A stretch of DNA of 64,000 nucleotides from Syntrophaceae bacterium UBA1411 (lineage in GTDB: Bacteria > Desulfobacterota > Syntrophia > Syntrophales > Smithellaceae), in the NCBI GenBank assembly GCA_002304995.1, contig DBPV01000022.1, positions 1,248-65,247 on the forward strand, written 5' to 3'. Position numbers and translations under genes: made by a program. Of this stretch, positions 1,846-26,485 are shown piece after piece (the stretch's first letter is position 1; the number at the start of each line of letters is the position of its first letter). Below the pieces are notes generated by a model. It worked only from the letters and a program-made list of their open reading frames with translations, was not told the origin of the DNA and searched no databases.

Positions 1846-2445
1846 ATGAAATCCTACGCTCAACCCATCAAGCGACTGATTGCGGAGCTTGCCAAGCTGC
1901 CGGGAATCGGCGAGAAAACGGCGGCGCGGCTGGCCAACTATATTTTGCGCGCCACGACCGACGACGTGGAAAAGCTCGCCGAAAGCCTCGTGGAAGTGAA
2001 ACGGAAGATCCGGCTGTGCCGCGTCTGCCTCAATCCCAGTGAAGAAGATATCTGCCACATCTGCGCCAATCCGGCGCGCGACCGGCAGGTGATCTGCGTC
2101 GTGGAAGAGCCGGACGCGCTGGCCGCCATCGAGGAAAGCGGCGTCTTTGCCGGAACCTACCATGTGCTGCACGGCGCGCTGGCGCCGCTCGACGGCATCG
2201 GACCGGAAAACCTGCGCCTGGGCGAACTGCAGAAGCGCGTCGAGGACGGCGGCGTCGAGGAACTCATTTTAGCCACCAATCCCAACGTGCACGGCGAAGC
2301 CACGGCGCTGCTCATCATGCGGATGTTCAAGGACAGGCCCCTGCGGATCACGCGCATCGCCATGGGCGTGCCGATGGGCGGCGATCTGAAATACGTCGAC
2401 AAGATGACGATTTCCAAATCCCTGGAATTCCGCAGGGGCATGTAG
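1846..2445 (+). CDS. recR: recombination protein RecR
   Basis: The 199-aa product has the C4 zinc finger [16 protein letters not shown] and a Toprim-like [15 protein letters not shown] segment. Confidence 0.95.
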
Positions 2446-2454
2446 GCTGCGCTT

Positions 2455-3321
2455 ATGGACAAAAAAAAGCCAAAGCGCCTGCGGCGCATCGCCGCCGGAC
2501 GCATCACCAAAACGGTGCGCAACCTGTTCATCGCCGCCAACACCACGCTTTGCGACGACGTGTGCGATGCGCTCCGGCGCGCCCTCGCGCAGGAAGCGTC
2601 GCCCATCGGCCGCGAGGTGCTCGCCAAAATCCTGCAAAACGCCGACATCGCCCGCGACAACGCTCTGCCGATCTGTCAGGATACGGGACTGGCCGTGTTG
2701 TTTCTCGAGGTCGGCCAGGATGTCCGGATCGTCGGCGGCCCGCTTCAGGACGCCATCGCGGAGGGCGTCCGCCAGGCGTACGCGGAAGGCTTCCTGCGCA
2801 AATCCGTCTGCGATCCCTTCACCCGCGCCAACACCAAAGACAATACGCCGGCCGTAATCCACTGCGACATCGTTCCGGGCGACCACCTGCGCATCATCGC
2901 CATGCCCAAGGGCGGCGGCAGCGAAAACATGAGCCAGGCGCGGATGCTCACGCCTGCGGCGGGGCTTGACGGCGTCAAGCAATTCGTTCTGGAAACGGTG
3001 GAAAAGGCCGGCGCCAATGCCTGTCCGCCGATCATCGTGGGAGTCGGCATCGGCGGTTCGCTCGAAGAGGCGTGTCTGCTCGCGAAAAAGGCGCTGCTGC
3101 GGCCGGTCGGCGCAAAAAACGAAGACGACGACCGCCTGGCCAAGATGGAAGAGGACCTCTTCAGAAAAATCAACGCTCTGGGCATCGGGCCGGCGGGCCT
3201 GGGCGGCCGGATGACAACGCTCGGCGTTTCCGCGGTGATGAAGCCCTGTCACATCGCGTCGCTGCCGGTCGCGGTCAATATCCAGTGCCATGTGGCCCGG
3301 CACCGGGAAGAAACGCTATGA
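2455..3321 (+). CDS. Fe-S hydro-lyase, class I fumarate hydratase / tartrate dehydratase alpha-type subunit
   Basis: The 288-aa product carries the ICQDTGLAV motif of the Fumerase N-terminal family. Its stop overlaps the start of the beta subunit (ATGA at 3318-3321). Confidence 0.88.
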   Translation: MDKKKPKRLRRIAAGRITKTVRNLFIAANTTLCDDVCDALRRALAQEASPIGREVLAKILQNADIARDNALPICQDTGLAVLFLEVGQDVRIVGGPLQDAIAEGVRQAYAEGFLRKSVCDPFTRANTKDNTPAVIHCDIVPGDHLRIIAMPKGGGSENMSQARMLTPAAGLDGVKQFVLETVEKAGANACPPIIVGVGIGGSLEEACLLAKKALLRPVGAKNEDDDRLAKMEEDLFRKINALGIGPAGLGGRMTTLGVSAVMKPCHIASLPVAVNIQCHVARHREETL

Positions 3322-3905
3322 GCCCGACAACCTCCGCCGACCAGGACCGGTTTCTCCGGATTTCAACGCCTCTTTCCGCCGAGGTCCGCGCCCGGCTCCG
3401 GGCGGGCGACATGGTGCTCTTGTCGGGCGACATCTACACGGCCCGCGACGCGGCGCACCGCCGTCTGCATGAAGCGCTCGTCCGCGGCCTTCCGCTCCCG
3501 ATCGATTTGTCCGCCGCAACGCTCTTCTATGCCGCGCCGTCGCCCACGCCGGTCGGCAAGGTCATCGGTTCGATCGGCCCGACCACCAGCTACCGCATGG
3601 ATGTCTTCACGCCGACGCTCATCGAGCACGGCTTGCGGGGCATGATCGGCAAGGGCAACCGCTCGCCGGAAGTCGCCCTTGCCATCAAACGCTACGGCGC
3701 GGTTTACTTCGGCGCCATCGGCGGCATTGCGGCGCTTACGGCCCAGTGCGTGAAGCACATGGAAATGGTCGCCTATGAAGATCTGGGTCCGGAAGCCATC
3801 CGCAAACTCACGGTGGCGGACCTGCCGCTGGTGGTCATCAACGACGCCGAAGGCAACGACCTGTATGCCCAGGCGCAAAACGACTGGCGTATCCTGACGG
3901 AATGA
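3318..3905 (+). CDS. Fe-S hydro-lyase, class I fumarate hydratase beta-type subunit
   Basis: I place the start at the ATG at 3318, inside track ORF 3072..3905; the upstream part is R/G-rich and overlaps the alpha subunit. The 195-aa product has SGDIYTARDAAHRRL and GKGNRS motifs of the Fumerase_C family. Confidence 0.85.
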   Translation: MSPTTSADQDRFLRISTPLSAEVRARLRAGDMVLLSGDIYTARDAAHRRLHEALVRGLPLPIDLSAATLFYAAPSPTPVGKVIGSIGPTTSYRMDVFTPTLIEHGLRGMIGKGNRSPEVALAIKRYGAVYFGAIGGIAALTAQCVKHMEMVAYEDLGPEAIRKLTVADLPLVVINDAEGNDLYAQAQNDWRILTE

Positions 3906-4001
3906 CGCGTCATTTTTTCAGCCGAGGAAAAGATATTGACTCAGAATTCCTTCTATATTATGGATTCGGGTCATTTTTATATGCGAAGGAGATGAAACTG
4001 C

Positions 4002-4550
4002 ATGATTGAAGTAAGATGGCATGGCCGGGGCGGCCAGGGAGCGGTAACATCGGTGGAATTGCTGGCTGTGTCGGCAATCGCCGCGGGAAAATTCGCTCAG
4101 GGGTTCCCCAGTTTCGGCCCGGAAAGACGAGGCGCGCCGGTGGCCGCCTTTACACGCATTGACGACAAGAAAATCGACGTCCGTTCCGGCATCTACGAAC
4201 CGGATGTCGTCCTGGTGCTCGATTCGAGCCTGATCGGCCTGGTCAACGTCCTCGACGGACTGAAGCCGGGCGGCAAGGTCATCGTCAACACTCCCAAAAC
4301 ACCTGAAGAAATCCGAAAAGATCTGAATTTCAACGGCCCCGTCGCCACGGTTGACGGCACCGGCATCGCCCGCAAGGAGATGGGGGTTCCCATCGCCAAC
4401 ACGACGATGATCGGCGCCCTTCTGAAGGTCACCGGCATTATGGAGCTCGACGCCATGAAAGACTCCATCGAGCACCGTTTCGGCCGGATCGCCCAGAAGA
4501 ACCTAAACGCGATGAAGCGGGCCTACGATGAAATAAAAATCAGCAAGTAA
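4002..4550 (+). CDS. 2-oxoacid:ferredoxin oxidoreductase, gamma subunit (cluster 1)
   Basis: The 182-aa product starts with the N-terminal RWHGRGGQGAVT motif of POR/VOR/KOR gamma subunits. A GAAGGAG RBS lies upstream. Confidence 0.9.
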   Translation: MIEVRWHGRGGQGAVTSVELLAVSAIAAGKFAQGFPSFGPERRGAPVAAFTRIDDKKIDVRSGIYEPDVVLVLDSSLIGLVNVLDGLKPGGKVIVNTPKTPEEIRKDLNFNGPVATVDGTGIARKEMGVPIANTTMIGALLKVTGIMELDAMKDSIEHRFGRIAQKNLNAMKRAYDEIKISK

Positions 4551-4563
4551 GGGGACAATCCAT

Positions 4564-4842
4564 ATGGCATTAAAAACCTGGAAAGAACTTCCGATCGGTT
4601 GTGTTGTCTTTGAACCGGGCAGCGCCAGTGAATATCACACCGGCAGCTGGCGGTCGCAGCGGCCGGTCTGGGATGACGCCAAGTGCATCAAATGCGGCAT
4701 CTGCTACGTCTTTTGCCCGGAAGGATGCGTACAGCAGGGCGAGGACGGCTTTTTCAAAGCGGACATGAATTACTGCAAGGGGTGCGGGATCTGCGCGCAC
4801 GAGTGCTGGCCCCGCGCGATCAAGATGGTAGAGGAGGGATGA
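4564..4842 (+). CDS. 2-oxoacid:ferredoxin oxidoreductase, delta (2x[4Fe-4S] ferredoxin-like) subunit (cluster 1)
   Basis: The 92-aa product has two CxxCxxCxxxCP motifs (CIKCGICYVFCP, CKGCGICAHECWP). Confidence 0.88.
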   Translation: MALKTWKELPIGCVVFEPGSASEYHTGSWRSQRPVWDDAKCIKCGICYVFCPEGCVQQGEDGFFKADMNYCKGCGICAHECWPRAIKMVEEG

Positions 4843-4843
4843 C

Positions 4844-6019
4844 ATGGGTAAACGCGTTGGTTTGGAAGTAACGGTGGCCGTGGCGGAAGCCGTGGCGCTC
4901 TGCCGCATCGATATGGCGGGCGTCTATCCCATCACGCCGCAGTCGCACATCGCCGAACATCTCTCCAATCTGGTGGCCGACGGCAAACTCGACGCCGAGT
5001 TCGTCACGGTCGAATCCGAACATTCCGCCATGAGCGCGGTCATCGGGGCAGCGGCCGCGGGCGCGCGCGTCTACACGGCAACGAGCTCCCAGGGCCTGAT
5101 GCTGATGCACGAGCTTCTGCCCATCGCCTCGGCGATGCGGCTGCCCATCACCATGGCGATCGCCAACCGGGCGGTGTCCGGCCCGCTCAACATTTTGAAC
5201 GATCATTCCGACATCATGCCGCAGCGCGACGCCGGCTGGATCGCCGTTTTCGCGGAAAACGGCCAGGAAGCCGTAGATCTGTCCATTGCTGCCTTTAAAA
5301 TCGCCGAACACAAGGATGTCATGCTGCCGGTTTCGGTCAATATCGACGGTTTCCAGCTCACGCACATGGTCGAACCGGTCATTATGCCCTCGCAGGAAGA
5401 GGTCGACGCGTTTCTGCCGCCTTTCGTTCCGCATGCGACGCTGCATCCGTCCAGACCGGTTACGATGGGCGCCTTCTCCATGTCGGACTATTTCACCGAA
5501 ATCATGAAAGCCAAGGACGAGGCAATCAAAAATTCCAAAAAAGTCATTCTGGAGGTCTGGGACGACTGGGGCCGGCAGTTCGGACGCAACTACAAGCCGG
5601 TGGAAACCTACCTCGCCGAGGACGCGGACATTCTGATGCTGACGATGGGCTCGATGGGCGAAACGGCAAAAATCGCCATCGACGAATTGCGCGGCAAGGG
5701 CGTCAAAGCCGGTCTGATCAAGCTGCGCCTGTGGCGGCCGTTTCCGTTTGCCGAATTGGCGGCAGTTCTTAAAAACGCCGCCCAGCTGATCGTCACCGAC
5801 CGCGCCGTTTCCTTCGGCGGTCCCGGCGGACCCGTGTTTTCGGAAATTAAATCCGCTCTGTTTGCCCAAGCGAATCGCCCGGCAATCTACAACTACATCA
5901 TCGGCCTGGGCGGCCGCGACGTGGCCGTTTCGGACTTCGTCGGCATGTTTGAAACCGTTCGGGCGGACAAGGCCAAAGCCAAGGCGGACACTTATGAATT
6001 CTGGGGAGTGAGAGAATGA
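4844..6019 (+). CDS. 2-oxoacid:ferredoxin oxidoreductase, alpha subunit (cluster 1)
   Basis: The 391-aa product has YPITPQSHI and ESEHSAMSA motifs typical of OFOR alpha. It starts 1 nt after the delta stop. Confidence 0.9.
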   Translation: MGKRVGLEVTVAVAEAVALCRIDMAGVYPITPQSHIAEHLSNLVADGKLDAEFVTVESEHSAMSAVIGAAAAGARVYTATSSQGLMLMHELLPIASAMRLPITMAIANRAVSGPLNILNDHSDIMPQRDAGWIAVFAENGQEAVDLSIAAFKIAEHKDVMLPVSVNIDGFQLTHMVEPVIMPSQEEVDAFLPPFVPHATLHPSRPVTMGAFSMSDYFTEIMKAKDEAIKNSKKVILEVWDDWGRQFGRNYKPVETYLAEDADILMLTMGSMGETAKIAIDELRGKGVKAGLIKLRLWRPFPFAELAAVLKNAAQLIVTDRAVSFGGPGGPVFSEIKSALFAQANRPAIYNYIIGLGGRDVAVSDFVGMFETVRADKAKAKADTYEFWGVRE

Positions 6020-6954
6020 ATATTGTAGAAAATTTTGATTTATTTGCCCCGCGGCTCATCAATAAGAAAGAACTGTTTTCCTGCGGCCACCGCGCCTGCT
6101 CCGGCTGCGCGGAAGTGCTGTCCGTCCGGCTCATGTGCAAGGCGCTGGGCGACAACACTGTGGTCGCCTCCGCGACCGGCTGCATGGAAATCGTTTCGAG
6201 CATGTTTCCCACCACCGCCTGGAGAATCCCCTGGATTCACGTCGCGTTTGAAAACGCCGCGGCCGTGGCCTCCGGCGTGGAAGCGGGCCTCAAAGCGCTG
6301 CGCAAGAAGGGCAAGATCGACGACCGCTACATCAAGGTGGTCGGAATGGCCGGCGACGGCGGAACGATGGATATCGGCATCCAGGCGCTGTCCGGCGCAA
6401 TGGAACGCGGCCACGACATGATTTACGTCTGCTTCGACAACGAGGCTTACATGAACACCGGCATTCAGCGCTCCAGCGGCACGCCGATGGGCGCCTCCAC
6501 GACGACGGCGCCGGCCGGAAAAGCGAGCAGCGGCCAGAAGACCTGGAAAAAGAACATGCCGGAAATCATGGTCGCCCATGAAATTCCCTACGTCGCCACC
6601 GTCTGCCCCAGCTATCCTCTGGACTTCATCCGCAAGTTCGAGAAAGCCAGAAGCATCGAAGGACCTTCCTACATTCACTGCTTTTCCGTGTGCCCCACGG
6701 GGTGGCGGTCTCCGTCGGAGACGGCCGTTTCCATGGGACGGCTGGCCGTGGAAACGGGCGTCTTCCCGCTGTTCGAAGTGGAAAACGGCCATTACCGCAT
6801 GTCTGCGGATATGCCCAAAAAGCTCAAGCCCCTCCGCAGCTACTTCAAACCGCAGGGGCGTTTCCGCCACCTGACGGACGCCGAAATCGACGCGATTCAG
6901 GAACGAGTGACGGCCGAGTTCAACAAACTCACCCAAAAGGCCAAATTTCTGTAA
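6016..6954 (+). CDS. 2-oxoacid:ferredoxin oxidoreductase, beta (TPP-binding) subunit (cluster 1)
   Basis: The 312-aa product has the TPP motif GDGGTMDIGIQALSGAMERGHDMIYVCFDNEAYMNTG and N-terminal cluster cysteines (CSGC). It overlaps alpha by 4 nt. Confidence 0.9.
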   Translation: MNIVENFDLFAPRLINKKELFSCGHRACSGCAEVLSVRLMCKALGDNTVVASATGCMEIVSSMFPTTAWRIPWIHVAFENAAAVASGVEAGLKALRKKGKIDDRYIKVVGMAGDGGTMDIGIQALSGAMERGHDMIYVCFDNEAYMNTGIQRSSGTPMGASTTTAPAGKASSGQKTWKKNMPEIMVAHEIPYVATVCPSYPLDFIRKFEKARSIEGPSYIHCFSVCPTGWRSPSETAVSMGRLAVETGVFPLFEVENGHYRMSADMPKKLKPLRSYFKPQGRFRHLTDAEIDAIQERVTAEFNKLTQKAKFL

Positions 6955-7007
6955 ACAGGCCATCCATAACGGGAATGACCCTTAACGCATACAGAGGTGA
7001 AAAAAGC

Positions 7008-7493
7008 ATGACAAACGTCAGTGAAATCAGAAAGAAAACAAAACTCATCGTCAAGAAGTATTCTGGCGATAAAAGCGCGCTTATTGCCGTGTTGCAGGAT
7101 ATCCAGGAAGCGTTCAATTATCTTCCGAAGGACGCACTCGCCGCTGCGGCCAAAGCGCTGGGAATTCCGGTCAGCCGGGTTTACGAAGTGGCAACCTTTT
7201 ACACCGCCTTCAGCCTGAAGCCGCGCGGCGAGCATGTCGTCAAGATCTGCATGGGCACGGCCTGTCACGTGCGGGGCGCGGCGGCCATTCAGGACAAGAT
7301 GGAAAGAACCCTCTGTATCAAACCCGGCGAAACCACGCCGGATCAGAAATTTTCCCTGGAAACCGTCAACTGCGTGGGCGCCTGCGCTCTGGGCCCCGTG
7401 GTCGTCATCAACACTGAATATCACGGCCAGATGACCATGGCCAAAGTCGATAAGATCATCGGCAAAATCAAAGAGGGAGGCGCACAGTCATGA
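7008..7493 (+). CDS. NuoE/HydC/HoxE-like [2Fe-2S] thioredoxin-like subunit
   Basis: I place the start at the ATG at 7008, 8 nt after AGAGGTGA, inside track ORF 6690..7493. The 161-aa product has [10 protein letters not shown]...CVGACALGP cluster motifs. Confidence 0.85.
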
Positions 7494-9337
7494 AAAAAAT
7501 TACCACGGCTTTAGACTTGCGCCGCGTTCAGGAAGACCTGAAGAAGAATTTCGATCCCAGCAAGAAACTGGTCACGATCTGCGCCGGAACCGGCTGCCGC
7601 GGATACGGCTGCATCAATGTGAAGGAAGCCCTCGAAGCGGAACTGCAAAAACAAAACATGGACGTGGAAGTCCGCGCCACCGGCTGCTTCGGTTTCTGTG
7701 AAAAAGGCCCGCTGGTGGTCGTCCATCCGGAAAAGATCTTTTATCAGCAGGTCAAAATTAAGGACGTGCCGGACATCGTTTCCAAAACCGTCGCCTCGGG
7801 CGAGATTCTGGAAAAGCTGCTTTACCGCGATCCGTTCACCAAAGAAACCGTGCTGAAAGAAGAGGAAGTACCTTTCTATAAAAAACAGCACCGGCTGGTT
7901 TTCGGACAAAACGGCCTGATCGATCCCACACGGATCGAGGACTATCTGATTATCGGCGGCTACAGCGCGCTGGCCAAAGCCCTGACCGAAATGACGCCGG
8001 AAGGCGTGATCGATGAAGTGAAAAAAGCGGGGCTCCGCGGACGGGGCGGAGGAGGATTTCCGGCCGGCGTCAAATGGGAAAGCTGCCGCCGGGCGCACGG
8101 CGCGCCGAAATACGTCATCGGCAACGGCGACGAAGGCGATCCCGGCGCTTACATGGACCGCAGCCTGATGGAAGGCAATCCGCACAGCGTTCTCGAGGGC
8201 ATGATCATCGGCGCTTACGCCATCGGCGCGTCCGAAGGGTATATCTACGTGCGCAACGAATATCCCCTGGCGGTGCTGCACCTCACCCTGGCCATCGCCG
8301 CCGCCAAGGAAGCCGGCCTTTTGGGCAAAAACATTCTGGGAACGGATTTCTCCTTTGACATCCACATCAACAAGGGCGGCGGAGCGTTTGTCTGCGGTGA
8401 ATCGTCCGCCTTGTTCGCCTCCATCGAAGGCCGCGCGGGCGAGCCGCGGGCCAAGTACATCCACGCCGTGGAAAAAGGCCTGTGGGACAAGCCCACCTGC
8501 CTCAACAACGTTGAAACCTGGGCAAACGTGCCCATCATCATCAATCAGGGCGCCGAAACCTACGCGTCCGTCGGAACGGAAGGCTCGAAAGGCACCAAGA
8601 TCTTTTCACTGGTCGGAAAGATCAACAACACCGGACTTGTTGAAGTCCCGATGGGCATCACGCTGCGCGAAATCGTCTATGACATGGGCGGCGGCATTCC
8701 CAACGGCCGCAAGTTCAAGGCCGTCCAGACCGGCGGCCCCTCCGGCGGCTGCATTCCCGAAAGGCTGCTCGACCTGCCGGTCGATTTCGACAAACTCACC
8801 GAAGTCGGATCGATGATGGGCTCCGGCGGCATGATCGTCATGGACGACCGCTCCTGCATGGTCGACGTGGCCAAATACTTCCTGGCCTTTCTTCAGGAAG
8901 AGTCCTGCGGCAAGTGCGTTCCCTGCCGGGAAGGCGTCCGCCGCATGCGTGAAATCCTCGAGGACATCTGCGCCGGCCGCGGCAAGGAAGGCGACGTGGA
9001 GCTGCTCGAGCACATTTCAACCGGCGTCGCCGACGGATCGCTGTGCGCGCTGGGCGGCTCCGCTCCCAATCCGGTTCTTTCCACGATTCGCTACTTCCGC
9101 GAAGAGTACGACGCGCACATCCGGGATCACCGCTGTCCGGCGGGCGTCTGCAAGGCGCTCATCACCTACAGCGTCAATGCCGAGAAGTGCACGGGCTGCG
9201 GCATGTGCGTGAAGGTCTGCCCGGTGCAGGCCGCCACCGGCGAAAAGAAGAAGCCCCACTCCATTAACAATGACCTTTGCACCAGATGCGGCGCATGTAT
9301 CGAAAGCTGCAAATTTGATGCGATTACCGTTGAATAA
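7490..9337 (+). CDS. NuoF/HydB/HoxF-like FMN- and NAD(H)-binding Fe-S flavoprotein
   Basis: The 615-aa product has [17 protein letters not shown] (FMN/NADH site) and [10 protein letters not shown] (N3-type 4Fe-4S). It also has an N-terminal thioredoxin-like 2Fe-2S module ([20 protein letters not shown]) and C-terminal 2x[4Fe-4S] ([23 protein letters not shown]). It overlaps the NuoE-like gene by 4 nt. Confidence 0.9.
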
Positions 9338-9352
9338 AAGGTAGGATAGACC

Positions 9353-10066
9353 ATGGTAAATTTGATTATTGACGGCAAGAATGTAACGGTACCCAAAGAT
9401 ACGATGGTGCTGGAAGCAGCCCGCAGCGCAGGGGTGAATATTCCCACCCTTTGCGCCCACGAGGCGATCTCGCGCTCCGGTTCGTGCAGGCTGTGCGTGG
9501 TGGAAGTGAAAAAGGGACACCGGACCCGGATCGTCACCTCCTGCCTGTATCCCGTCGAGGAAGGCCTGATCGTCGACACCCGGAGTGAAAGGGTGCAAAA
9601 CGTCCGCCGGCTGGTTTTGGAGCTGCTTTTGGCGCGCTGCCCGAAATCGGACGTCCTGCAGAAACTGGCCCTGGACCTCGGCGTCGATCCGCATCCCCGG
9701 TTCGTTCCGGACACGGACAAGGGCAAGTGCATCCTGTGCCGCTCCTGCGTGCGCGTCTGCGAAGAAGTGGTCGGCGTCAGCGCCATCGGCATGTCGTCGC
9801 GCGGATCGCACAAGACCGTCGGCCCTCCCTTCAAGGAAGCCTCTTCGGTCTGCATCGGCTGCGGCGCGTGCGTTTACGTCTGCCCCACCGGACACATCGT
9901 CATGCAGAGCACGGGCGACAAGAGAAAAATCTGGCGGCGCACCTTCAAGATGCAGGCCTGTGAAAAATGCGGCAAATACTTTGCTCCCGTGGACCAGTTG
10001 AAATTCATCAGCAAAAAAACCGGCACGCCTTACAAGGAGCTCGCGGTGTGCACCGAGTGCCGGTAG
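9353..10066 (+). CDS. HoxU / N-terminal-NuoG/HydA-like Fe-S electron-transfer subunit (no catalytic domain)
   Basis: The 237-aa product has an N-terminal plant-type 2Fe-2S fold (LCAHE..SCRLCVVEV..TSC) and two 4Fe-4S motifs (CILCRSCVRVC, CIGCGACVYVCP). A terminal 4-Cys pair is also present (CEKCGKYF...CTECR). There is no H-cluster or molybdopterin domain. Confidence 0.8.
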   Translation: MVNLIIDGKNVTVPKDTMVLEAARSAGVNIPTLCAHEAISRSGSCRLCVVEVKKGHRTRIVTSCLYPVEEGLIVDTRSERVQNVRRLVLELLLARCPKSDVLQKLALDLGVDPHPRFVPDTDKGKCILCRSCVRVCEEVVGVSAIGMSSRGSHKTVGPPFKEASSVCIGCGACVYVCPTGHIVMQSTGDKRKIWRRTFKMQACEKCGKYFAPVDQLKFISKKTGTPYKELAVCTECR

Positions 10067-10090
10067 CCTGAGCGCGTTTTTCCCCGATAC

Positions 10091-10128
10091 AAAAGAGCCC
10101 GACTTCGTAAAGAAGCCGGGCTCTTTTG
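10091..10128. terminator. bidirectional intrinsic terminator between converging genes
   Basis: AAAAGAGCCCG (10091-10101) pairs with CGGGCTCTTTT (10117-10127) around a 15-nt loop. This gives an A-run/T-run hairpin readable on both strands. It lies 25 nt after the HoxU-like stop and 53 nt after the small minus-strand ORF. Confidence 0.7.
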
Positions 10129-10180
10129 CACCAGAAGCACATGAAAAAGGAGTAAAAAAGGATAACGTTTTCCGCGCGCG

Positions 10181-10351
10181 TCAGCTCAACCAGCGACTTC
10201 TCGGCCGGTCCGACTTCACGCGGACAAATGGCGGCGGCAGACGATTCTGGAAATGATTCGGATCGAAACGGAATCCGCCGGTCTGCCCGGACCGTTCGGA
10301 CATCATGCGTTTGAACCACTTGGCCAGAATATCCTGTATTTCATTTCCCAT
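10181..10351 (-). CDS. candidate small protein (56 aa), unknown function
   Basis: This is a hand translation, below the 60-aa cut-off of the ORF track. The ATG at 10351 lies 8 nt after GAGG. The product is MGNEIQDILAKWFKRMMSERSGQTGGFRFDPNHFQNRLPPPFVRVKSDRPRSRWLS, with a TGA stop at 10183-10181. The bidirectional terminator follows it. I recognise no homology. Confidence 0.35.
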   Translation of the reverse strand: MGNEIQDILAKWFKRMMSERSGQTGGFRFDPNHFQNRLPPPFVRVKSDRPRSRWLS

Positions 10352-10373
10352 TTACGCCGCCTCAAGACTCGAG

Positions 10374-10408
10374 AAAAAAATTGTTCAGGGGGCCGCAGCC
10401 CCCTGAAC
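10374..10408 (-). terminator. strong intrinsic-terminator-like hairpin on the minus strand (possible attenuator)
   Basis: A perfect 11-bp stem pairs GTTCAGGGGGC (10383-10393) with GCCCCCTGAAC (10398-10408) around a 4-nt loop. On the minus strand it is followed by AATTTTTTT (the A-run 10374-10380 on plus). It sits about 20 nt upstream of the small ORF RBS. Confidence 0.6.
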
Positions 10409-10796
10409 GCGTCCCTTCGTTCCTTCAACCATTTAAAATTCATCAGTCGAGAAAAGTCCGTTTTTCACGATAAAGGCCGCCCGGAACATCTCCGTGGGAC
10501 AGGTTTGTCTCACTCCGTGACTAAAAATAAACTCTGTATGAAGCATCCGTTAAAAACGTCTTTGCCGATTCGGATTATAACCGGCCCTGACAGCAAAAAA
10601 CGGACAAAATGGAAACCTTTTTACCTCCTCGTGGACCTTTAAAGCCTTTTCCCTCAGAAAAAAATGCTGCTCTGTTTCAACAGAGCCGCGTCGTTCTTTT
10701 CCGGAATCCTTGCCTATGTCATTCCTGATTGCATATTATACAAATGTCATGCCATTTTTCACGATAATACAGAGAGCTGATTTGCAAAGGTTTTTA

Positions 10797-10845
10797 TTGA
10801 CACGCAGGCACAATGTTGCTAGGGTGTCCCACCAACGTGGGACAC
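10797..10845 (+). promoter_or_regulatory. candidate sigma-70 promoter of the sigma-54 activator gene with an overlapping inverted-repeat operator
   Basis: The promoter reads TTGACA (10797-10802), 17 nt, TAGGGT (10820-10825). A perfect 9-bp inverted repeat GTGTCCCAC-caac-GTGGGACAC (10824-10845) overlaps the -10 region. Confidence 0.35.
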
Positions 10846-10907
10846 TTGTGACTCATATAACGGATTTGTGGGACAGAAGGACGGATTATTACCGCCGGAA
10901 GTGATGA

Positions 10908-12914
10908 ATGAACGCTAAACCTCACACAATACCGTACAAGAAAAAACTTTCGACTTTTTATTCCCGGTTTGCCGATCAATACAATGCCACCAAAACGCAA
11001 TGGGGCAAATGCGTTGCCGGTCATACGGACATTGACGGCGCCGTTGTTCCCCAGGATATTCAGAACGCCTGGCTTCGCTGCCGGAAGCTGCAGCTCAATC
11101 CCTTTAAAAAGCCGATTCCGCCGATTTTGTCGGATGCCCGATTGTGGGCGCTGCGAGAGGGTCACAATACATTGATCCAGAGCGCCAGACCGGCGATGGA
11201 TCATTTCTGTGAATTCAGCGCCTCCCGGCGGTCCCTGGTGTGTCTTTTCAGCCGGGAGGGCGTTCTGCTTGAGGTCCGTGCAAATGCCGGCTATCAAAAG
11301 CCCGCGCAGTCCTTCCGGCTGCTGCCCGGTTCTGTCTGGACGGAAGAAACCGTCGGCGCAAACGCCATCGGACTGGTCGTCGCGCTTCAGCAGCCGGTGC
11401 GCTTTTTCGGCCCCCAGCACTACATGCGCGCCTATCACGGAGAAACCGCCGCCGCCGCGCCCATCTTCGACGCACGGCAGAAGTTCATCGGCGGCATCGC
11501 CCTTCTGGCCAGCGTCTACAGCGCCGATCCGCACGCGCTGGGAATGGCCGCATCGATGGCCCGGGCCGTTGAAAGCGACATGAAAAAAACGGAGGAGCTG
11601 GAAAAAACGCGCACCGTCGCCAATTATCATGAGGCGGTTCTCCACGCGGTTCCCGATGCCATGATCGCCGTAAGCGAAGACGGCCTCATCACCTTCATCA
11701 ATTCCCCCGCCCGCAAACTCCTGCATCTGGGTCCGCAGGCCCAGGACAGGCGGATGCGCGACCTGCTGCATGCGGGCAACGCGGCGCTGTTCCGGATCGC
11801 CGAAGGAGACAAAACGGTCGCCGACATGCCGGTCCGTATCGCCTCCCCTTACGGATTTAACGACTTTCTCGCGACATCCGGCCTCATCCGCAGCGCTTCG
11901 GGAAAGACAGTCGGCAAAATGATCATTTTAAAAGAGGCGCAAGCCGCCAGGAAAACGATCGCCAGACCGGCCGGCCTCAAAGCGCTCTTTCGCTTCAACG
12001 ACATCTGCGGGCAAAACAGCCGCTTTGTCCGCACGCTGCATCATCTCCAGCTTGCCGCCAAAAGCGATTCCAATGTTTTGCTCCTGGGAGAAAGCGGCAC
12101 GGGCAAGGATATTTTCGCCCAGGCCATTCACAGCGGCGGCGCGCGGAAGAACGGCCCCTATATCGCGATCAACTGCGCCTCCATTCCGCGGGATTTGATC
12201 GCCAACGAACTCTTCGGCCATTCGGAGGGAGCTTTCACCGGATCGCGCCGGGGCGGCAACACGGGGAAATTCGAAGCGGCCGACGGCGGAACGATTTTTC
12301 TCGATGAGATCGCCGAGACGTCCCTGGAATTCCAGGCGGCGCTGTTGCGCGTCGTCGAGGAAAAGGCCATCGTGCGCGTCGGCGGCACGAGCGTCCGGCC
12401 GGTGGACGTCCGGATCATCGCGGCAACGAATAAGAATATTCTGGAGGAAATCCGCAAGGGAAACTTCCGCTCCGACCTGTATTACCGCCTGAACGTCTTT
12501 ACCATCGAGATGACGCCGCTGCGCGAAAGGAAAGACGATATTCCGCTCCTGGTTGACAACTTCATCAAGAAGTACTGCGACACGACGGGCCGCAACGTCG
12601 GCCGGATTTCCGAGTCGGTCCTGCGGATTCTTGCCAACTATCCCTGGCCGGGCAATATCCGGGAGCTGCAAAACGTGATCGAACGGATGATGAATGTCGC
12701 CCAGGGCAATGAACTCACGGCCGACCTCGTTCCGGATGAAATTCTCCACTGGCAGTATCAGGACACGGAAAACCATCTCACCGCACAAGCCCGGGAGAAG
12801 GAAGCCATCATCCAGATGATGGGCATCGGAATTCCGCGGAACAAAATCGCCCAGAAAATGAACATGGCCCGCAGCACGTTTTACCGCAAACTCAAGGGCT
12901 ACGGTCTGAACTGA
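10908..12914 (+). CDS. sigma-54-dependent transcriptional activator, AcoR-like (GAF/PAS-AAA+-HTH)
   Basis: The 668-aa product has an N-terminal AcoR-type IQNAWLRCRKLQLNP motif plus a GAF-like region and a PAS-like segment (AVPDAMIAVSEDGLITFINSPARKLL). The AAA+ core carries Walker A LLLGESGTGKD and the GAFTG loop (EGAFTGS). A C-terminal Fis-type HTH is present (IAQKMNMARSTFYRKLK). Confidence 0.9.
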   Translation: MNAKPHTIPYKKKLSTFYSRFADQYNATKTQWGKCVAGHTDIDGAVVPQDIQNAWLRCRKLQLNPFKKPIPPILSDARLWALREGHNTLIQSARPAMDHFCEFSASRRSLVCLFSREGVLLEVRANAGYQKPAQSFRLLPGSVWTEETVGANAIGLVVALQQPVRFFGPQHYMRAYHGETAAAAPIFDARQKFIGGIALLASVYSADPHALGMAASMARAVESDMKKTEELEKTRTVANYHEAVLHAVPDAMIAVSEDGLITFINSPARKLLHLGPQAQDRRMRDLLHAGNAALFRIAEGDKTVADMPVRIASPYGFNDFLATSGLIRSASGKTVGKMIILKEAQAARKTIARPAGLKALFRFNDICGQNSRFVRTLHHLQLAAKSDSNVLLLGESGTGKDIFAQAIHSGGARKNGPYIAINCASIPRDLIANELFGHSEGAFTGSRRGGNTGKFEAADGGTIFLDEIAETSLEFQAALLRVVEEKAIVRVGGTSVRPVDVRIIAATNKNILEEIRKGNFRSDLYYRLNVFTIEMTPLRERKDDIPLLVDNFIKKYCDTTGRNVGRISESVLRILANYPWPGNIRELQNVIERMMNVAQGNELTADLVPDEILHWQYQDTENHLTAQAREKEAIIQMMGIGIPRNKIAQKMNMARSTFYRKLKGYGLN

Positions 12915-16848: not shown

Positions 16849-17409
16849 ATGAAAAAAGATTATCTGGAAATCCGCTGGCACGGCCGCGGCGGACAGGGAG
16901 CGATCACGGCCGCCAAGGTCGTGGCCGGCGCCGCTTTCAGCTCGGGATTCGCCGGCGTGGTCATGGCCCCCACGTTCGGAACCGAACGGCGGGGCGCGCC
17001 GGTGATGACGTCGCTCAAAATTTCGAAAACGAAAATTTACGATCTGTCGCCGATTGAAAAGCCGGATATCGTCGTCGTTCTCGACCACCTGCTGCTCAAG
17101 GAAGCGGATGTCACGCACGGCCTCAAACCCGGCGGCATCATTGTGCTCAACACGCCGATGGCGCACGAGACGCACCATTTTAAAGATTTTAAACTGGCCA
17201 CCGCGGACGTTACGGCGATCTCGGTGGAAGCGGGCCTGCCGCACGGCATGGTCAACACCGGCATCATCGGTTCGCTGGAGCGGGCGGCGAATTTACTGGG
17301 CATCGACCTGCTCATCGAGAGGATCGAGGAAGAGTTCCGCACCCGCAGACCCGAAAAAAACGCGCTGGCCGCCCGTTTGGCCTATGAGCGCACCGCGACG
17401 GGAGGTTGA
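16849..17409 (+). CDS. 2-oxoacid:ferredoxin oxidoreductase, gamma subunit (cluster 2)
   Basis: The 186-aa product has the RWHGRGGQGAIT motif and is a paralogue of 4002..4550. Confidence 0.88.
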   Translation: MKKDYLEIRWHGRGGQGAITAAKVVAGAAFSSGFAGVVMAPTFGTERRGAPVMTSLKISKTKIYDLSPIEKPDIVVVLDHLLLKEADVTHGLKPGGIIVLNTPMAHETHHFKDFKLATADVTAISVEAGLPHGMVNTGIIGSLERAANLLGIDLLIERIEEEFRTRRPEKNALAARLAYERTATGG

Positions 17410-17410
17410 G

Positions 17411-17719
17411 ATGGGAACACGCCATTACCGAAGAAAAACATCGCACAGCGAGCACGGACCGGGCGACGGCGGAAGAACCGGCTCCTGGCGTGTGGAGCGG
17501 CCGGTCTTCGACCGGAATCTCTGCATTCCCTGCAAAAGAAACAAGGAAGCCTGCTTCATCTGCTGGCTGTTCTGTCCGGAAATCGTGATTTCCCGGACCA
17601 TCCCGCCCACCGTGGATCTGGAATACTGCAAGGGCTGCGGCATCTGCGCCGAAGAATGCCCCACCAAAGCCATCACCATGGTGGATGAAGCCAAATTCGC
17701 CGAAGAAGACAAGGAGTAG
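17411..17719 (+). CDS. 2-oxoacid:ferredoxin oxidoreductase, delta ferredoxin-like subunit (cluster 2)
   Basis: I place the start at the ATG at 17411, after GGAGG, inside track ORF 17054..17719. The 102-aa product has Cys motifs CIPCKRNKEACFICWLFCP and CKGCGICAEECP. Confidence 0.8.
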   Translation: MGTRHYRRKTSHSEHGPGDGGRTGSWRVERPVFDRNLCIPCKRNKEACFICWLFCPEIVISRTIPPTVDLEYCKGCGICAEECPTKAITMVDEAKFAEEDKE

Positions 17720-17724: not shown

Positions 17725-18924
17725 ATGCATATCATTGAAGACGGAAACGCGGCGGCGGCTCTGGGCGTCCGGCTCTGCCGCCCCCAGGTCATTGCCGCCT
17801 ATCCCATCACGCCGCAGACCCCCGTCACGGAAAAACTTTCCGAGTATGTCGAAGAAGGGTCGCTTTCGGCTCAGTATATCCCCGTGGAAAGCGAACATTC
17901 GGCGCTCGCCGTCTGCATCGCCGCCTCGTCGGCCGGCGCGCGCGTTTTCACCGCCACCAGCGCCAACGGCCTTTTGTACATGCACGAGCAGGTCCAGTGG
18001 GCCGCGGGCGCGCGCCTGCCCATCGTCATGTGCGTCGTCAACCGGGCGGTGGGCGCGCCCTGGAACATCTGGAACGACCAGCAGGATTCCATCTCCCAGC
18101 GGGACACGGGCTGGATCCAGATGTACTGCGCGGATCATCAGCAGATTCTCGACACGGTCATCAAGGCTTACTGGCTCGCGGAAAAGGTCAGCATTCCGAT
18201 CATGGTCTGCTATGACGGCTACATTCTGTCGCATACGTTCATGCCGTTCGACCTGCCGGAAGCGCGCGCTGTCGATGCCTTTCTGCCGCCGTTTCAGCCG
18301 GAGTACGCGCTCAATCCCCGCGAGCCGGCCAACCTCAACACCGTGACGCTGCCGGACGTGCGCATGGACGTGCACGGCGAACTGGCGCACGGCTACATGG
18401 AAATCCGTTATCTGCTCCAGGAGGATCTGCGCCTGGCGCTGGGGGCCGCGGCGGAAATGGAAAAGCGCTTTGCCGGCGTTTTCGGACGGGAGGCCGATCC
18501 CTACCTCGAACCCTACCGCTGCGACGACGCGGACTTTGTCGCCGTGGGGCTGGGCTCGCTCACCTATCAGCTGCGCGTCTCGGTGGATGCCCTGCGCGCA
18601 GAAGGCATCCGGGTCGGCGTGATGGGCGTGCGCTTTTACCGGCCTTTTCCCGATGAAGCCATCGCCCGCGCCCTCACCGGAAAGACAGGCGTCATCGTTT
18701 TTGAAAAGGCGCTGAGCTACGGGTACGAAGGCGCGCTGGCGTCGGATCTGAAATCCGCGCTTTACGAATATCTGGGCGGCACCGGCCGTCTGCCGACGGT
18801 CCAGAACTTCATCGCCGGCATCGGCGGCCGCGAAATCCATACGCAAGATTTAACCGATACCCTGAGAGCCGCGATCCAGGCCCGGGTCTCCAAAGAGCCC
18901 GCGTGGATCGGGCTTAAGTTATAG
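17725..18924 (+). CDS. 2-oxoacid:ferredoxin oxidoreductase, alpha subunit (cluster 2)
   Basis: The 399-aa product has YPITPQTPV and ESEHSALAV motifs. Confidence 0.88.
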   Translation: MHIIEDGNAAAALGVRLCRPQVIAAYPITPQTPVTEKLSEYVEEGSLSAQYIPVESEHSALAVCIAASSAGARVFTATSANGLLYMHEQVQWAAGARLPIVMCVVNRAVGAPWNIWNDQQDSISQRDTGWIQMYCADHQQILDTVIKAYWLAEKVSIPIMVCYDGYILSHTFMPFDLPEARAVDAFLPPFQPEYALNPREPANLNTVTLPDVRMDVHGELAHGYMEIRYLLQEDLRLALGAAAEMEKRFAGVFGREADPYLEPYRCDDADFVAVGLGSLTYQLRVSVDALRAEGIRVGVMGVRFYRPFPDEAIARALTGKTGVIVFEKALSYGYEGALASDLKSALYEYLGGTGRLPTVQNFIAGIGGREIHTQDLTDTLRAAIQARVSKEPAWIGLKL

Positions 18925-18933: not shown

Positions 18934-19839
18934 ATGCAACAGGCAAAAACCACCATCCTGAGTTTACCCACCCAAGAGTTCGTCCACCCGGGAACCAGGG
19001 CGTGCACCGGCTGCGGCCTGTCCATCGCCTACCGCGTGGGTCTCAAGGCGCTGGGTCCGGACACCATGCTGATCGTTCCTCCCAGCTGCCTCACCGTTTT
19101 GCAGGGCCTTTTTCCGGTGGCCTCCACCAAACTCCCCTGCCTGAACGTCACGTTTGCCTCGACGGCCGCCGCGGCCACGGGAATTTTAGCCACGCTCAAA
19201 GCGCAGGGCAACACCCATACCACCGTCGCCGCCTGGGCGGGAGACGGGGGCACCAGCGACATCGGCCTGCAGGCCCTGTCCGGCGCGGCGGAGCGCGGCG
19301 ACAACTTCATTTATTTCTGCTACGACAACGAAGGCTACATGAACACCGGCGTTCAGCGCTCGGGAACGACGCCCATCGGCGCCATCACGGCCAACACGCC
19401 GTTCAAGGGAAAGCTCCAGCAGAAGAAAGATGTTCCCGCCATCATGGCGGCGCATCATTTAAGCTACGTGGCCGCCTGCTCGGCGGCGTATCCGCTGGAT
19501 CTGTACGATAAGATTCTCAAGTGCCGGGACCTGCCCGGCACCAAATACTTCCACATTCACATTCCCTGCCCGCCCGGCTGGGGCTACGATCCGCGCTACG
19601 GCATCAAGATCGGACGGCTCGCCGTGGAAACGGGCTACTACGACCTCTACGAAGTCGTGAACGGCGAATTCCGCCTGACCGCCGCTTCCGAAAAGCTGGT
19701 GGAAAAGCGCAAGCTCGTCCCCGTCCGCGAATACTTCCGCTCCCAGTCGCGCTTCAAAGTGCTGACCGAGGAGCAGATTGCGGACATCCAGAAGCAGATC
19801 GACGAAAAGTGGGAAGGCTATTACAAAAAGAGCGACTAG
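18934..19839 (+). CDS. 2-oxoacid:ferredoxin oxidoreductase, beta TPP-binding subunit (cluster 2)
   Basis: The 301-aa product has GDGGTSDIGLQALSGAAERGDNFIYFCYDNEGYMNTG and N-terminal CTGCG. Confidence 0.88.
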   Translation: MQQAKTTILSLPTQEFVHPGTRACTGCGLSIAYRVGLKALGPDTMLIVPPSCLTVLQGLFPVASTKLPCLNVTFASTAAAATGILATLKAQGNTHTTVAAWAGDGGTSDIGLQALSGAAERGDNFIYFCYDNEGYMNTGVQRSGTTPIGAITANTPFKGKLQQKKDVPAIMAAHHLSYVAACSAAYPLDLYDKILKCRDLPGTKYFHIHIPCPPGWGYDPRYGIKIGRLAVETGYYDLYEVVNGEFRLTAASEKLVEKRKLVPVREYFRSQSRFKVLTEEQIADIQKQIDEKWEGYYKKSD

Positions 19840-19892: not shown

Positions 19893-21719
19893 TTATTCCT
19901 TGTAGAGGGCCTCGATCAGGTGGCCGTACTTTTCCATGACCACCTGGCGCTTGAGCTTCATCGTCTGCGTGAGCATGCCGTTGTCCAGCGTGAAATCTTC
20001 CAGGATGAAATCAAACTTGCGGGGAATTTCATAGGAACCGATGGTTTTGCGCAAATGGTTCTGCACCTCGGCGGTGAGCAGATCCTTGAATTTCCGGCCG
20101 GCGGGATTGGCCGGATCGAAAAGGTCTTTCGGATCGACAGACAGGTTGAGTTCGGCGGCCAGATGCTCGAGGAGTTTCATGTCGGGCACGATCAGCCCCA
20201 CGTTGTATTCATGGCCAGATCCGGCCACCACAGCGTTTAAAATCCAGGGCAGCACCTTCATCTCCAGTTCCACGGTTTCCGGATGTACATATTTCCCGTT
20301 GGCCAGTTTATATTCCTCCTTGAAGCGGCCGGTGATGTATAAGAAACCGTCGTCGTCGAGGCGTCCCCGGTCGCCCGTGCGCACACCCCGCATGCCATCG
20401 CGTTCCACGATCACTTCTTTGGTCTGTTCCGGTTTTTTGTGATAGCCGATCATGCACTGAGGCCCGAAGCAGATGATTTCTCCGTCGTCGCCGTCTTCGC
20501 CGGTGCGCGACCGGTCGATCACCACTTTGGTCTTGTTGATGGGCTTTCCCACCGTCCCCAGACGGTTCCCCATCAGGGGCGAGTTAATGGTAATGGCCGG
20601 AGAGGTCTCGCTCAACCCATACGCGTCATAGGTTGGAATCCCCACATCGATGAAGAATTTGGCGATTTCCACGTTCATGGGCGCGCTGCCGGTGACCGCG
20701 TTTTCCAGCCGTCCGCCGAAGCGCTCCCGGATCTTGGCCAGAACGATCTTGTCCAGGATTTTATACTTGAGGCCGGCCCGGCCTGTCTCGCGTTTGGCTT
20801 TGGCCGCCGCCAGCGCCGCCTCGAAGAGTTTGAGCTTGAGCCCGCCTTCCTCGCGCATTTTGGCCCAGACGCCGTTGTAGACGCGGTTGAAGATCCGGGG
20901 CACCGTGATCATGAAGGTCGGCTTGACCTTGGGCAGATCGTCGATGAGCGTTTCAACCGATCCCATGATGCCGATGGACGCGCCGCGCATCATGAACGCG
21001 TGCAGGTCGGCCGTGATTCCGAACGAATGCGCCCAGGGCAGCATGGAGATGCAACGGCTGTGTTCGGTCAGATTCGGAAACCAGGCCAGGCCCGCCTTGA
21101 CGTTTTCCGCGAGGTTTCCGTGGGACAGCAAGACGCCCTTGGGCTCGCCCGTCGTCCCCGAAGTGTAAATCAGCACCGCGACATCCGAATGTTTGGGTTT
21201 GATCGACGCCACGGGATTTTTCGCGCCTGCGGCTTCCAGCGCCGCCAGCGTGTTTTCCCCTTCGCCCTCGATCAGAAAAATTTTTTTGAGCGTGGGAATT
21301 TCGGCGGGAAAATCTTTTACCTTGGCCAGAATCTCCGGCTTGGACACGAGAAGAACCTTCACTTCCGCGTCGCGGATAATGTACTTCCACATCGACACCA
21401 GTTCCTTCTCGTACATCGGCACATAGCAGGCGCCCCGTCCCTGTGCGGCGATTTCGCCGATGAACCACTCCTTGCGGTTGTTGGCGATGATGCCGACCGC
21501 GTCCCCCGCCTGCACTCCCGCCGCCGCCAGTCCGCCCCGCAGACGGTCGATGCGCTCTGCGATCTGCCGGTAGGTGACCCACTGATACGTCCCGGCGGCG
21601 TCCTTTTCGCCGATAAAAACGTTGCCGGCAAAGCGGGCCGCGCTTTGTTCAAAAAAATCCACCAGATTGTCCGGCGGCTCGTACACGTTGCTGTACTCGC
21701 CATACTCAAAAATCGCCAT
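19893..21719 (-). CDS. long-chain acyl-CoA synthetase (AMP-forming, ACSL-like)
   Basis: The 608-aa product has the AMP-binding signature LIYTSGTTGEPKGV and C-terminal motifs TGDRGRLDDDGFLYITGR and GMLTQTMKLKR. Confidence 0.88.
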   Translation of the reverse strand: MAIFEYGEYSNVYEPPDNLVDFFEQSAARFAGNVFIGEKDAAGTYQWVTYRQIAERIDRLRGGLAAAGVQAGDAVGIIANNRKEWFIGEIAAQGRGACYVPMYEKELVSMWKYIIRDAEVKVLLVSKPEILAKVKDFPAEIPTLKKIFLIEGEGENTLAALEAAGAKNPVASIKPKHSDVAVLIYTSGTTGEPKGVLLSHGNLAENVKAGLAWFPNLTEHSRCISMLPWAHSFGITADLHAFMMRGASIGIMGSVETLIDDLPKVKPTFMITVPRIFNRVYNGVWAKMREEGGLKLKLFEAALAAAKAKRETGRAGLKYKILDKIVLAKIRERFGGRLENAVTGSAPMNVEIAKFFIDVGIPTYDAYGLSETSPAITINSPLMGNRLGTVGKPINKTKVVIDRSRTGEDGDDGEIICFGPQCMIGYHKKPEQTKEVIVERDGMRGVRTGDRGRLDDDGFLYITGRFKEEYKLANGKYVHPETVELEMKVLPWILNAVVAGSGHEYNVGLIVPDMKLLEHLAAELNLSVDPKDLFDPANPAGRKFKDLLTAEVQNHLRKTIGSYEIPRKFDFILEDFTLDNGMLTQTMKLKRQVVMEKYGHLIEALYKE

Positions 21720-26467: not shown

Positions 26468-26485
26468 CCTGTTGCCGGACTCCTT

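Follow-up and report, generated by a model that had tools for sequence, protein, structure and literature searches.

A Por-Bfu operon in a Syntrophaceae genome, predicted to join a pyruvate oxidoreductase to a bifurcating-type NAD(H) module

A seven-gene operon and its boundaries

The window analysed here is the whole 64,000-nucleotide (nt) stretch of contig DBPV01000022.1 (positions 1,248 to 65,247, forward strand) in assembly GCA_002304995.1 of Syntrophaceae bacterium UBA1411. At window positions 4002-10066 it carries seven co-oriented, tightly packed plus-strand open reading frames (ORFs), which encode the four subunits of a 2-oxoacid:ferredoxin oxidoreductase (OFOR), PorC-PorD-PorA-PorB, followed by the three subunits of a flavin module, BfuC-BfuB-BfuA. 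The locus is a further example of the predicted Por-Bfu class. On balance, we think it probable that these genes specify a single Por-Bfu enzyme, of Type 2 within the BfuABC family, that couples pyruvate to both NAD(H) and ferredoxin. A first-pass annotation, made from the letters of the sequence, had read these genes, with their short gaps and 4-nt overlaps, as an OFOR of gamma-delta-alpha-beta order joined to a HydABC/Bfu-type NAD(H) module. The ORF listing confirms the genes and their positions, and the domain assignments confirm the architecture.

The Por genes begin with PorC (gamma subunit, 182 amino acids (aa), PF01558) at 4002-4550 and PorD (delta, 92 aa, TIGR02179), a protein with two [4Fe-4S] motifs, at 4564-4842. 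PorA (alpha, 391 aa) follows at 4844-6019, with POR_N and PFOR_II domains and a YPITP motif at residue 28, and then PorB (beta, 312 aa) at 6016-6954, the subunit for thiamine pyrophosphate (TPP) and a [4Fe-4S] cluster, which is identified by TPP_enzyme_C and NF008819. A 53-nt spacer with a ribosome-binding site (6955-7007) separates PorB from BfuC (HydC/NuoE-like, 161 aa, C1 [2Fe-2S] cluster, 7008-7493). The last two genes encode BfuB (HydB/NuoF-like, 615 aa, 7490-9337), which is the flavin mononucleotide (FMN) and NAD(H) subunit, and BfuA (237 aa, 9353-10066), all on the plus strand. In gene order, the junctions measure +13, +1, -4 (overlap), +53, -4 (overlap) and +15 nt. The ORF listing runs BfuC upstream to a GTG at 6690; we prefer the ATG at 7008 because of homology and an AGAGGTG ribosome-binding site.

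The 5' boundary is set by a terminator-like hairpin and T-run on the plus strand (3895-3921, stem 3895-3912, tail TTTTTTCAGC), which closes the upstream fumarate hydratase genes. It is followed by an AT-rich 5' leader (3922-4001, plus strand), which can be read as a putative promoter region and then a GGAG ribosome-binding site. The leader hexamers TTGACT (3936-3941) and TATATT/TATTAT (3954-3961) are spaced by only 12-14 nt, so there is no canonical sigma-70 promoter upstream of 4002. The promoter scanner reported no sigma-70-like site upstream of 4002 either, and no -24/-12 sigma-54 element was seen by eye in front of the operon.

At the 3' end, a terminator-like hairpin made up of an A-run, a 16-bp stem and a T-run (10090-10128; -26.4 to -28.2 kcal/mol, z = -3.18 against shuffles) separates the operon from a 56-aa gene that converges on it and is called in public assemblies. 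Given this position between two convergent genes, the earlier description of a single bidirectional terminator after the last gene is reasonable. Rfam and tRNA scans found no structured RNA in or beside the operon.

The 53-nt spacer between PorB and BfuC folds no better than shuffled sequence (z = -0.40), and the folding and signal scans found no terminator-like or promoter-like match in it. A promoter and terminator between 6954 and 7008, giving separate transcripts, had been named at the outset as grounds for abandoning a single unit; neither signal was found in the sequence. In an alignment of the spacer from four Syntrophales loci, conservation is confined to the region of the ribosome-binding site.

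The Por module and its likely substrate

Pyruvate-type NCBIfam models rank first for all four Por subunits, with models of the 3-methyl-2-oxobutanoate (VOR) type next-best. PorB scores 416.9 bits with the equivalog NF008819, above its cutoff of 405. PorC matches PF01558 (E = 1.3e-39) and reaches 223.4 bits with NF006321 (cutoff 225), and PorA reaches 479.7 bits with NF040682 (cutoff 550). PorD exceeds the cutoff of TIGR02179 (103.3 against 60 bits) and scores 115.1 with the pyruvate-synthase equivalog (cutoff 120). Judged by these models, the substrate of PorABCD would be pyruvate; this assignment is not certain, with PorA, PorC and PorD just under their equivalog cutoffs.

The same complex could instead act on another 2-oxoacid, such as 2-oxobutyrate, 2-oxoisovalerate or a glyoxylate-like acid, a reading that is compatible with a single Por-Bfu enzyme. 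The near misses of the alpha, gamma and delta subunits and the second rank of the VOR models would allow for it, as would a locus in another genome (L040, described below) in which a VorB-type OFOR is coupled to Bfu. On the other hand, PorB lies above the curated PorB cutoff, the pyruvate-type models come first throughout, and it is the beta subunit of a second OFOR in the window that scores best as VOR-type. We therefore consider a substrate other than pyruvate very unlikely.

That second four-subunit OFOR (gamma 16849-17409, delta approximately 17420-17719, alpha 17725-18924, beta 18934-19839) had been put forward as a paralogue without the flavin module, and hence as an internal contrast to the operon. 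It does lack a flavin module; however, it is only 37-41% identical to the Por proteins described here, and it is a distant, probably VOR-type relative rather than a close paralogue, which makes it a weak contrast.

The cluster ligands of the Por module are well conserved. In PorD, Cys41/44/47/51 and Cys71/74/77/81 are invariant across 19 Por-Bfu loci, and in PorB, Cys28/31/56 are invariant and Cys226 is found in 95% of the aligned sequences. With its four subunits, TPP site, three [4Fe-4S] clusters and YPITP motif, the module resembles the stand-alone PorABCD pyruvate:ferredoxin oxidoreductases, but unlike them it is trailed by BfuCBA in one operon. PorD is the probable electron exit towards BfuA, and its site for free ferredoxin has presumably been taken over for BfuA docking.

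PorA is 100% identical to a protein annotated as 'pyruvate ferredoxin oxidoreductase' in a 'Syntrophaceae bacterium' metagenome-assembled genome (MAG). At least 23 metagenome contigs carry the identical PorA, and their gene order is unchanged. All matches listed in the PorA protein search have at least 82% identity, and all are from Smithellaceae or Syntrophaceae.

The flavin module and its cofactor sites

BfuC matches PF01257 over its full length (E = 4.9e-54); its best matches in the Protein Data Bank (PDB) are HydC subunits of bifurcating hydrogenases, and its C1 [2Fe-2S] ligands, Cys81/86/122/126, are invariant. BfuB consists of an N-terminal thioredoxin-like 2Fe-2S domain (residues 25-99, PF01257), FMN (PF01512), SLBB and NADH_4Fe-4S (PF10589) domains, and two C-terminal Fer4 domains (561-613). 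The extra N-terminal thioredoxin-like and C-terminal 2x[4Fe-4S] domains that had been ascribed to a NuoF/HydB-like subunit are thus borne out by Pfam and NCBIfam. The nearest BfuB cluster representatives, at 80-91% identity, are Smithellaceae/Smithella proteins.

We scored ligand conservation in BfuB over 78 homologues. The ligands of the B1 [4Fe-4S] cluster (Cys473/476/479/519) are 100% conserved, those of the B3/B4 2x[4Fe-4S] pair (Cys567/570/573/577 and Cys597/600/603/607) 99-100%, and those of the thioredoxin-like B5 [2Fe-2S] cluster (Cys31/36/66/70) 97-100%. Cys456/His543/Cys549/Cys554 are invariant, align with the tungsten-enzyme homologue WorB introduced below, and probably form the Zn (B2) site. 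According to published work on the family, non-bifurcating homologues are without the B2-B5 sites, and deletion of B3/B4 abolishes bifurcation. The predicted ligand sets by which a bifurcating BfuBC core is recognised in sequence, those of B1, B3/B4, B5 and C1, are all present here.

BfuA is composed of Fer2_4 and 2x[4Fe-4S] domains, and a Pfam/NCBIfam scan found no catalytic domain in its 237 aa, in agreement with the original view of this subunit as a wire only. Its A1 [2Fe-2S] ligands (Cys34/45/48/64) and its A2/A4 [4Fe-4S] ligands (Cys126/129/132/136 and Cys167/170/173/177) are 100% conserved, and a C-terminal Cys4 zinc-finger motif (Cys203/206/233/236) is 95-100% conserved. The His-Cys3 motif of the A3 cluster is absent, with a single Cys (96) in that region, and there is no A5 cluster either. 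The protein ends at residue 237, one residue past the last zinc-finger Cys, and has no C-terminal helix. The zinc finger without the helix recurs in 17 of the 18 other Por-linked loci, and we describe the conserved ending 'C-x2-C ... C-x2-C-[R/K]-end' as a new signature of Por-linked BfuA.

Comparison with characterised enzymes

The best solved-structure match of both BfuB and BfuA is WorABCSL (Wor-Bfu) of Acetomicrobium mobile (9MQX, PMC12318220). BfuB matches 9MQX_B (WorB, a member of BfuB clade 45) with 814.7 bits over residues 13-612, and BfuA matches 9MQX_A (WorA, 247 aa) over residues 2-236 of 237 (E = 6.3e-59). WorABCSL is a characterised bifurcating enzyme whose aldehyde oxidation needs both NAD and ferredoxin, and WorA is a wire without A3 that carries a Cys4 zinc finger where other BfuA proteins bind A5. 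A wire-only BfuA with a zinc finger is therefore common to the two systems. They differ in catalysis, which in WorABCSL takes place at the tungstopterin subunit WorL, joined via the polyferredoxin nanowire WorS; in Por-Bfu a TPP enzyme stands in its place.

It had been assumed at the outset that the catalytic site of characterised family members sits in the third subunit. This premise is wrong, because WorA is wire-only and catalysis resides in separate subunits. BfuA is likewise a wire with separate catalytic subunits in NiFe-HydABCSL, and in Type 2 and Type 3 Fdh-Bfu the pyranopterin site is in an additional subunit.

The electron-bifurcating [FeFe]-hydrogenases HydABC of T. maritima (7P5H), T. 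kivui (8A6T) and A. woodii (7Q4V) have a homologous BfuBC core with the same cluster complement. Their HydA bears the H-cluster and A3, whereas BfuA here ends after the ferredoxin-like domain and zinc finger. NuoEFG and HoxEFU share the FMN/NADH fold, the N3-type [4Fe-4S] cluster and the N1a-type [2Fe-2S] cluster, but they are without the extra domains at the two ends of BfuB (thioredoxin-like at the N-terminus, 2x[4Fe-4S] at the C-terminus) and do not use ferredoxin. Assignment to NuoEFG or HoxEFU was rejected, given these extra BfuB domains and scores below cutoff for NuoF (TIGR01959, 470 against 558.65), HoxE (158.6 against 224), HoxU (130.2 against 333) and NuoG (118 against 470).

The enzyme could in principle be simpler, a non-bifurcating, ferredoxin-independent and NAD+-dependent pyruvate dehydrogenase that functions like PadEFGHI, the NAD+-linked phenylglyoxylate:acceptor oxidoreductase. 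Such NAD-linked OFORs exist, the NCBIfam models for PadE/F/G/I being named 'NADH-dependent phenylglyoxylate dehydrogenase', and pyruvate oxidation (E0' = -500 mV) can drive NAD+ reduction unaided. A Pad-type assignment was itself rejected, since PadE, PadF, PadG and PadI all score far under their cutoffs (165.1/300, 73.4/150, 328.2/700 and 234.2/700, respectively). BfuB moreover keeps complete B3/B4 and B5 sites, which according to published work form the ferredoxin site and are missing in non-bifurcating homologues. Finally, Wor-Bfu, the nearest characterised relative, also has a very low-potential donor, and yet it couples that donor obligately to NAD+ and ferredoxin together. We regard a simple dehydrogenase as quite unlikely and retain the bifurcating Por-Bfu enzyme as the preferred reading.

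Conservation of the Por-Bfu linkage

For the gene neighbourhood, we used BfuB to search a set of genomes in which each GTDB species is represented once, retained the 80 best loci, and compared these by tblastn with all seven window proteins. Of the 80 species-level loci, 18 have the order PorC-D-A-B-BfuC-B-A intact, and one more (L010) is a copy cut by a contig end. Among them are loci from Syntrophus/Syntrophaceae, SAR324, Thermodesulfobacteriota, Dehalococcoidia and Chloroflexia MAGs. The first-pass annotation had called for this comparison, and the linkage of OFOR and flavin module does hold across several phyla; its recurrence indicates that the arrangement is more than chance. The PorB-BfuC junction is estimated to be contiguous or overlapping in approximately two-thirds of these loci; of the junctions checked directly, the one in L012 (Dehalococcoidia) is a 4-nt overlap and the one in L003 a 9-nt gap. 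Synteny is conserved, and the Por/Bfu junction is translationally coupled in other phyla. Among the relatives with a long contig, the closest (L081, 91% BfuB identity) has the identical operon.

Three further loci are rearranged. In L006 (UBP1 MAG, 5072-11171), PorC has been relocated behind BfuA with the Por-Bfu linkage kept, and in L041 (Dehalococcoidia, 1957-8071), BfuCBA comes first and PorCDAB after, with a BfuA of 204 aa that is without the C-terminal zinc-finger motif. In L040 (JBDRSE010000355.1, 4837-10670), an OFOR of another class is joined to Bfu. Its gene order is a 77-aa dicluster ferredoxin, an alpha subunit of the VorB subfamily (NF005507, 532 bits, cutoff 399), a 250-aa beta subunit, gamma, BfuC, BfuB and a 261-aa BfuA. 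Both beta and gamma are short, and BfuC overlaps gamma by 4 nt. Judging by the VorB-type OFOR beside Bfu in this locus, the flavin module can work with OFORs of other classes. We found no mention of a 'Vor-type OFOR-Bfu' in the accessible parts of the two Bfu papers, PMC9304861 and PMC12318220.

In pairwise comparisons of loci, the divergence of the Por subunits correlates with that of the Bfu subunits (r = 0.55-0.83). This fits co-inheritance of the two modules, to which a shared species phylogeny would also contribute.

One enzyme or two

The linkage could also reflect two separate, co-transcribed enzymes, a ferredoxin-dependent PorABCD and a free BfuABC that equilibrates ferredoxin with NAD(H) or serves an unlinked hydrogenase or formate dehydrogenase. 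Many BfuB relatives (58-66% identity) do adjoin other modules or no recognised one, and in this lineage a 53-nt spacer separates the two modules. The conservation of gene order across phyla, with a 4-nt PorB/BfuC overlap in loci such as L012, argues against it, as do the independent rearrangements in L006, L040 and L041, all of which keep the OFOR adjoining Bfu. A BfuABC without a third substrate has no precedent in the available descriptions of the Bfu family. No hydrogenase, formate dehydrogenase or other candidate partner was found among the approximately 35 larger ORFs scanned in the window; their products are housekeeping proteins, enzymes of a glycogen-metabolism cluster, a sigma-54 activator and the second OFOR. 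The nearest species genome (L001) is similar at the nucleotide level up to position 10065, exactly at the BfuA stop codon, where the similarity ends. We consider two independent enzymes unlikely.

Several observations nevertheless weigh against the single bifurcating enzyme that we favour. In WorABCSL, the only structurally known Type 2 relative, the C-terminal helix of WorA docks WorS, and BfuA here has no such helix; physical contact between Por and Bfu is a prediction from sequence. The PorB-BfuC junction in this lineage measures 53-56 nt and does not overlap, so that an internal transcription start is possible. In a quick, poorly resolved neighbour-joining tree of 78 BfuB sequences, the Por-linked ones are not clearly monophyletic and fall in several groups interleaved with other types, on short deep branches. 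The substrate is less than certain because three of the four Por subunits score below the NCBI equivalog cutoffs. Lastly, pyruvate at standard potentials can reduce NAD+ or ferredoxin directly, and bifurcation is thus not thermodynamically required.

The published Por-Bfu prediction

The first reading of this DNA implied a novel arrangement, which is incorrect. Schut et al. (2022, Front Microbiol 13:946711; PMC9304861) surveyed 1,558 BfuB homologues, named the seven-gene arrangement 'Por-Bfu (A-G)' and proposed the same function for it. Their survey places 12 Por-Bfu sequences, described as uncharacterised, in BfuB clades 35, 44 and 45, from organohalide-respiring Chloroflexi (Dehalococcoidia) and syntrophic Proteobacteria, and cites co-expression of the cluster in Dehalococcoides mccartyi in favour of a single operon. 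They propose that pyruvate is made from NADH plus ferredoxin, or is oxidised only with both acceptors. Clade-45 enzymes, including Por-Bfu, are described as having a BfuA with A1, A2 and A4 only. The 2025 WorABCSL paper (PMC12318220) adds that the WorA homologue of Por-Bfu has a zinc finger and no C-terminal helix, and treats the enzyme as still hypothetical.

The operon described here has the same composition as the published Por-Bfu, namely four Por subunits with BfuC, BfuB and a BfuA that has A1/A2/A4 and the zinc finger but no helix. It shows no difference of kind and represents a Syntrophaceae/Smithella-like MAG example with a 53-nt PorB-BfuC spacer, where L012 has a 4-nt overlap. Our full-text literature search found the term 'Por-Bfu' only in PMC9304861 and PMC12318220, and it turned up no biochemical characterisation, in line with the earlier statement that no characterised example is known; a search for the Dehalococcoides locus tags DET0724-0730 gave no match. 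The earlier prediction of a 2-oxoacid oxidoreductase coupled to NAD(H), probably bifurcating or confurcating with ferredoxin, agrees with the comparative evidence and the published hypothesis. Beyond the published prediction, the present analysis contributes a wider census (approximately 20 species-level genomes with Por-Bfu among the best 80 BfuB matches, against 12 sequences in the published survey), the BfuA signature, the translational coupling of Por and Bfu in other phyla, and the VorB-type OFOR-Bfu variant in L040.

Proposed mechanism and direction

In the mechanism that we propose, PorAB, with TPP and a [4Fe-4S] cluster, would decarboxylate pyruvate with coenzyme A (CoA). Electrons would pass through the two PorD [4Fe-4S] clusters to A4, A2 and A1 of BfuA in turn and from there to the B1-FMN-C1 'flavobicluster' of BfuBC, where electron pairs would be split. 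Two electrons would leave as a hydride to NAD+ at the FMN, and the other two would reach ferredoxin singly by way of C1 and of B3/B4 in the C-terminal part of BfuB. This route is modelled on the cycle put forward for NfnABC and WorABCSL. By analogy with Wor-Bfu, the stoichiometry would be 2 pyruvate + 2 CoA + NAD+ + 2 Fd(ox) <-> 2 acetyl-CoA + 2 CO2 + NADH + 2 Fd(red) + H+, where Fd is ferredoxin. We infer that Por and Bfu form a physical complex through a docking surface between PorD and BfuA, with coupling to NAD and ferredoxin that would be obligate.

The physiological direction may be the reverse, a confurcating pyruvate synthase in which NADH would give half the electrons. Syntrophs gain acetyl-CoA and NADH from their lifestyle, while reduced ferredoxin is scarce, and for this reason we expect the reverse direction to be the more important one. 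The ferredoxin-saving pyruvate-synthase direction is probably the one used in this Syntrophaceae/Smithella-like organism. The standard potential of the pyruvate couple is E0' = -500 mV (PMC9304861, Table 1). At an acetyl-CoA/CoA ratio of 10, 10 mM CO2 and 10 uM pyruvate, we computed a potential of approximately -380 mV, which is close to the mean of NADH (-280 mV) and ferredoxin (-500 mV) and lies in the regime where Bfu enzymes work. The confurcating direction would thus be feasible.

A more far-reaching version of this model would combine a true seven-subunit, TPP-dependent bifurcating enzyme that runs as a confurcating pyruvate synthase with a Bfu module that has been joined independently to OFORs of two or more classes (Por-type, and VorB-type as in L040), so that 'OFOR-Bfu' would be a broader, unrecognised group. 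We put this forward tentatively, as a combination whose chance of being correct in full falls a little short of even.

Genomic neighbourhood

A two-subunit class I (Fe-S) fumarate hydratase is encoded directly upstream of the operon (2455-3905, plus strand). It has this position only in the population studied here and in the nearest relative. At four further Por-Bfu loci (L004 and L007, Syntrophaceae/Syntrophus MAGs; L013, a Thermodesulfobacteriota MAG; and L019, a Deltaproteobacteria MAG), recR lies there instead, and we rejected fumarate hydratase as a conserved neighbour.

The operon is followed by an 840-nt gap (10067-10907). It contains the 56-aa minus-strand gene mentioned above (approximately 10181-10351), which has no Pfam match, as well as two minus-strand terminator-like hairpins (10408-10383 and 10686-10669) and, at approximately 10710-10762, promoter-like sites on both strands. 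The gap is possibly a small RNA or small-protein locus. A sigma-54-dependent activator of 668 aa comes next (10908-12914, plus strand); a precomputed Pfam match to the MimR_N sensor domain exists for the gene of the same length and position in matching metagenome contigs. The closest relative, L081, has PilZ and ParA-like genes in place of this activator.

Further downstream, the second OFOR converges on an AMP-binding acyl-CoA ligase (19893-21719, minus strand). A glycogen/alpha-glucan cluster at 21833-32869 (plus strand) includes a 1544-aa protein whose C-terminal third resembles archaeal-type glycogen debranching enzyme, a DUF3417/phosphorylase protein, a starch-synthase-like glycosyltransferase, and a CBM48/alpha-amylase branching-type enzyme.

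Implications for syntrophic metabolism

As a concept, Por-Bfu had already been predicted in print. What the locus mainly contributes is an example with clear boundaries, found in many metagenomes and suited to expression work, together with a wider taxonomic census and the coupling of other OFOR classes to Bfu. If the proposed function is correct, Por-Bfu would be the first case of a TPP enzyme connected to flavin-based electron bifurcation. It would account for pyruvate synthesis from acetyl-CoA and CO2, near the thermodynamic limit, at less than the cost of two low-potential ferredoxin electrons per pyruvate. The candidate beneficiaries are Smithella/Syntrophus-type syntrophs and Dehalococcoidia, which are starved of energy and would need only half as much reduced ferredoxin to fix CO2 for anabolism. 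Redox balances would also be affected in models of communities that live by methanogenesis or organohalide respiration.

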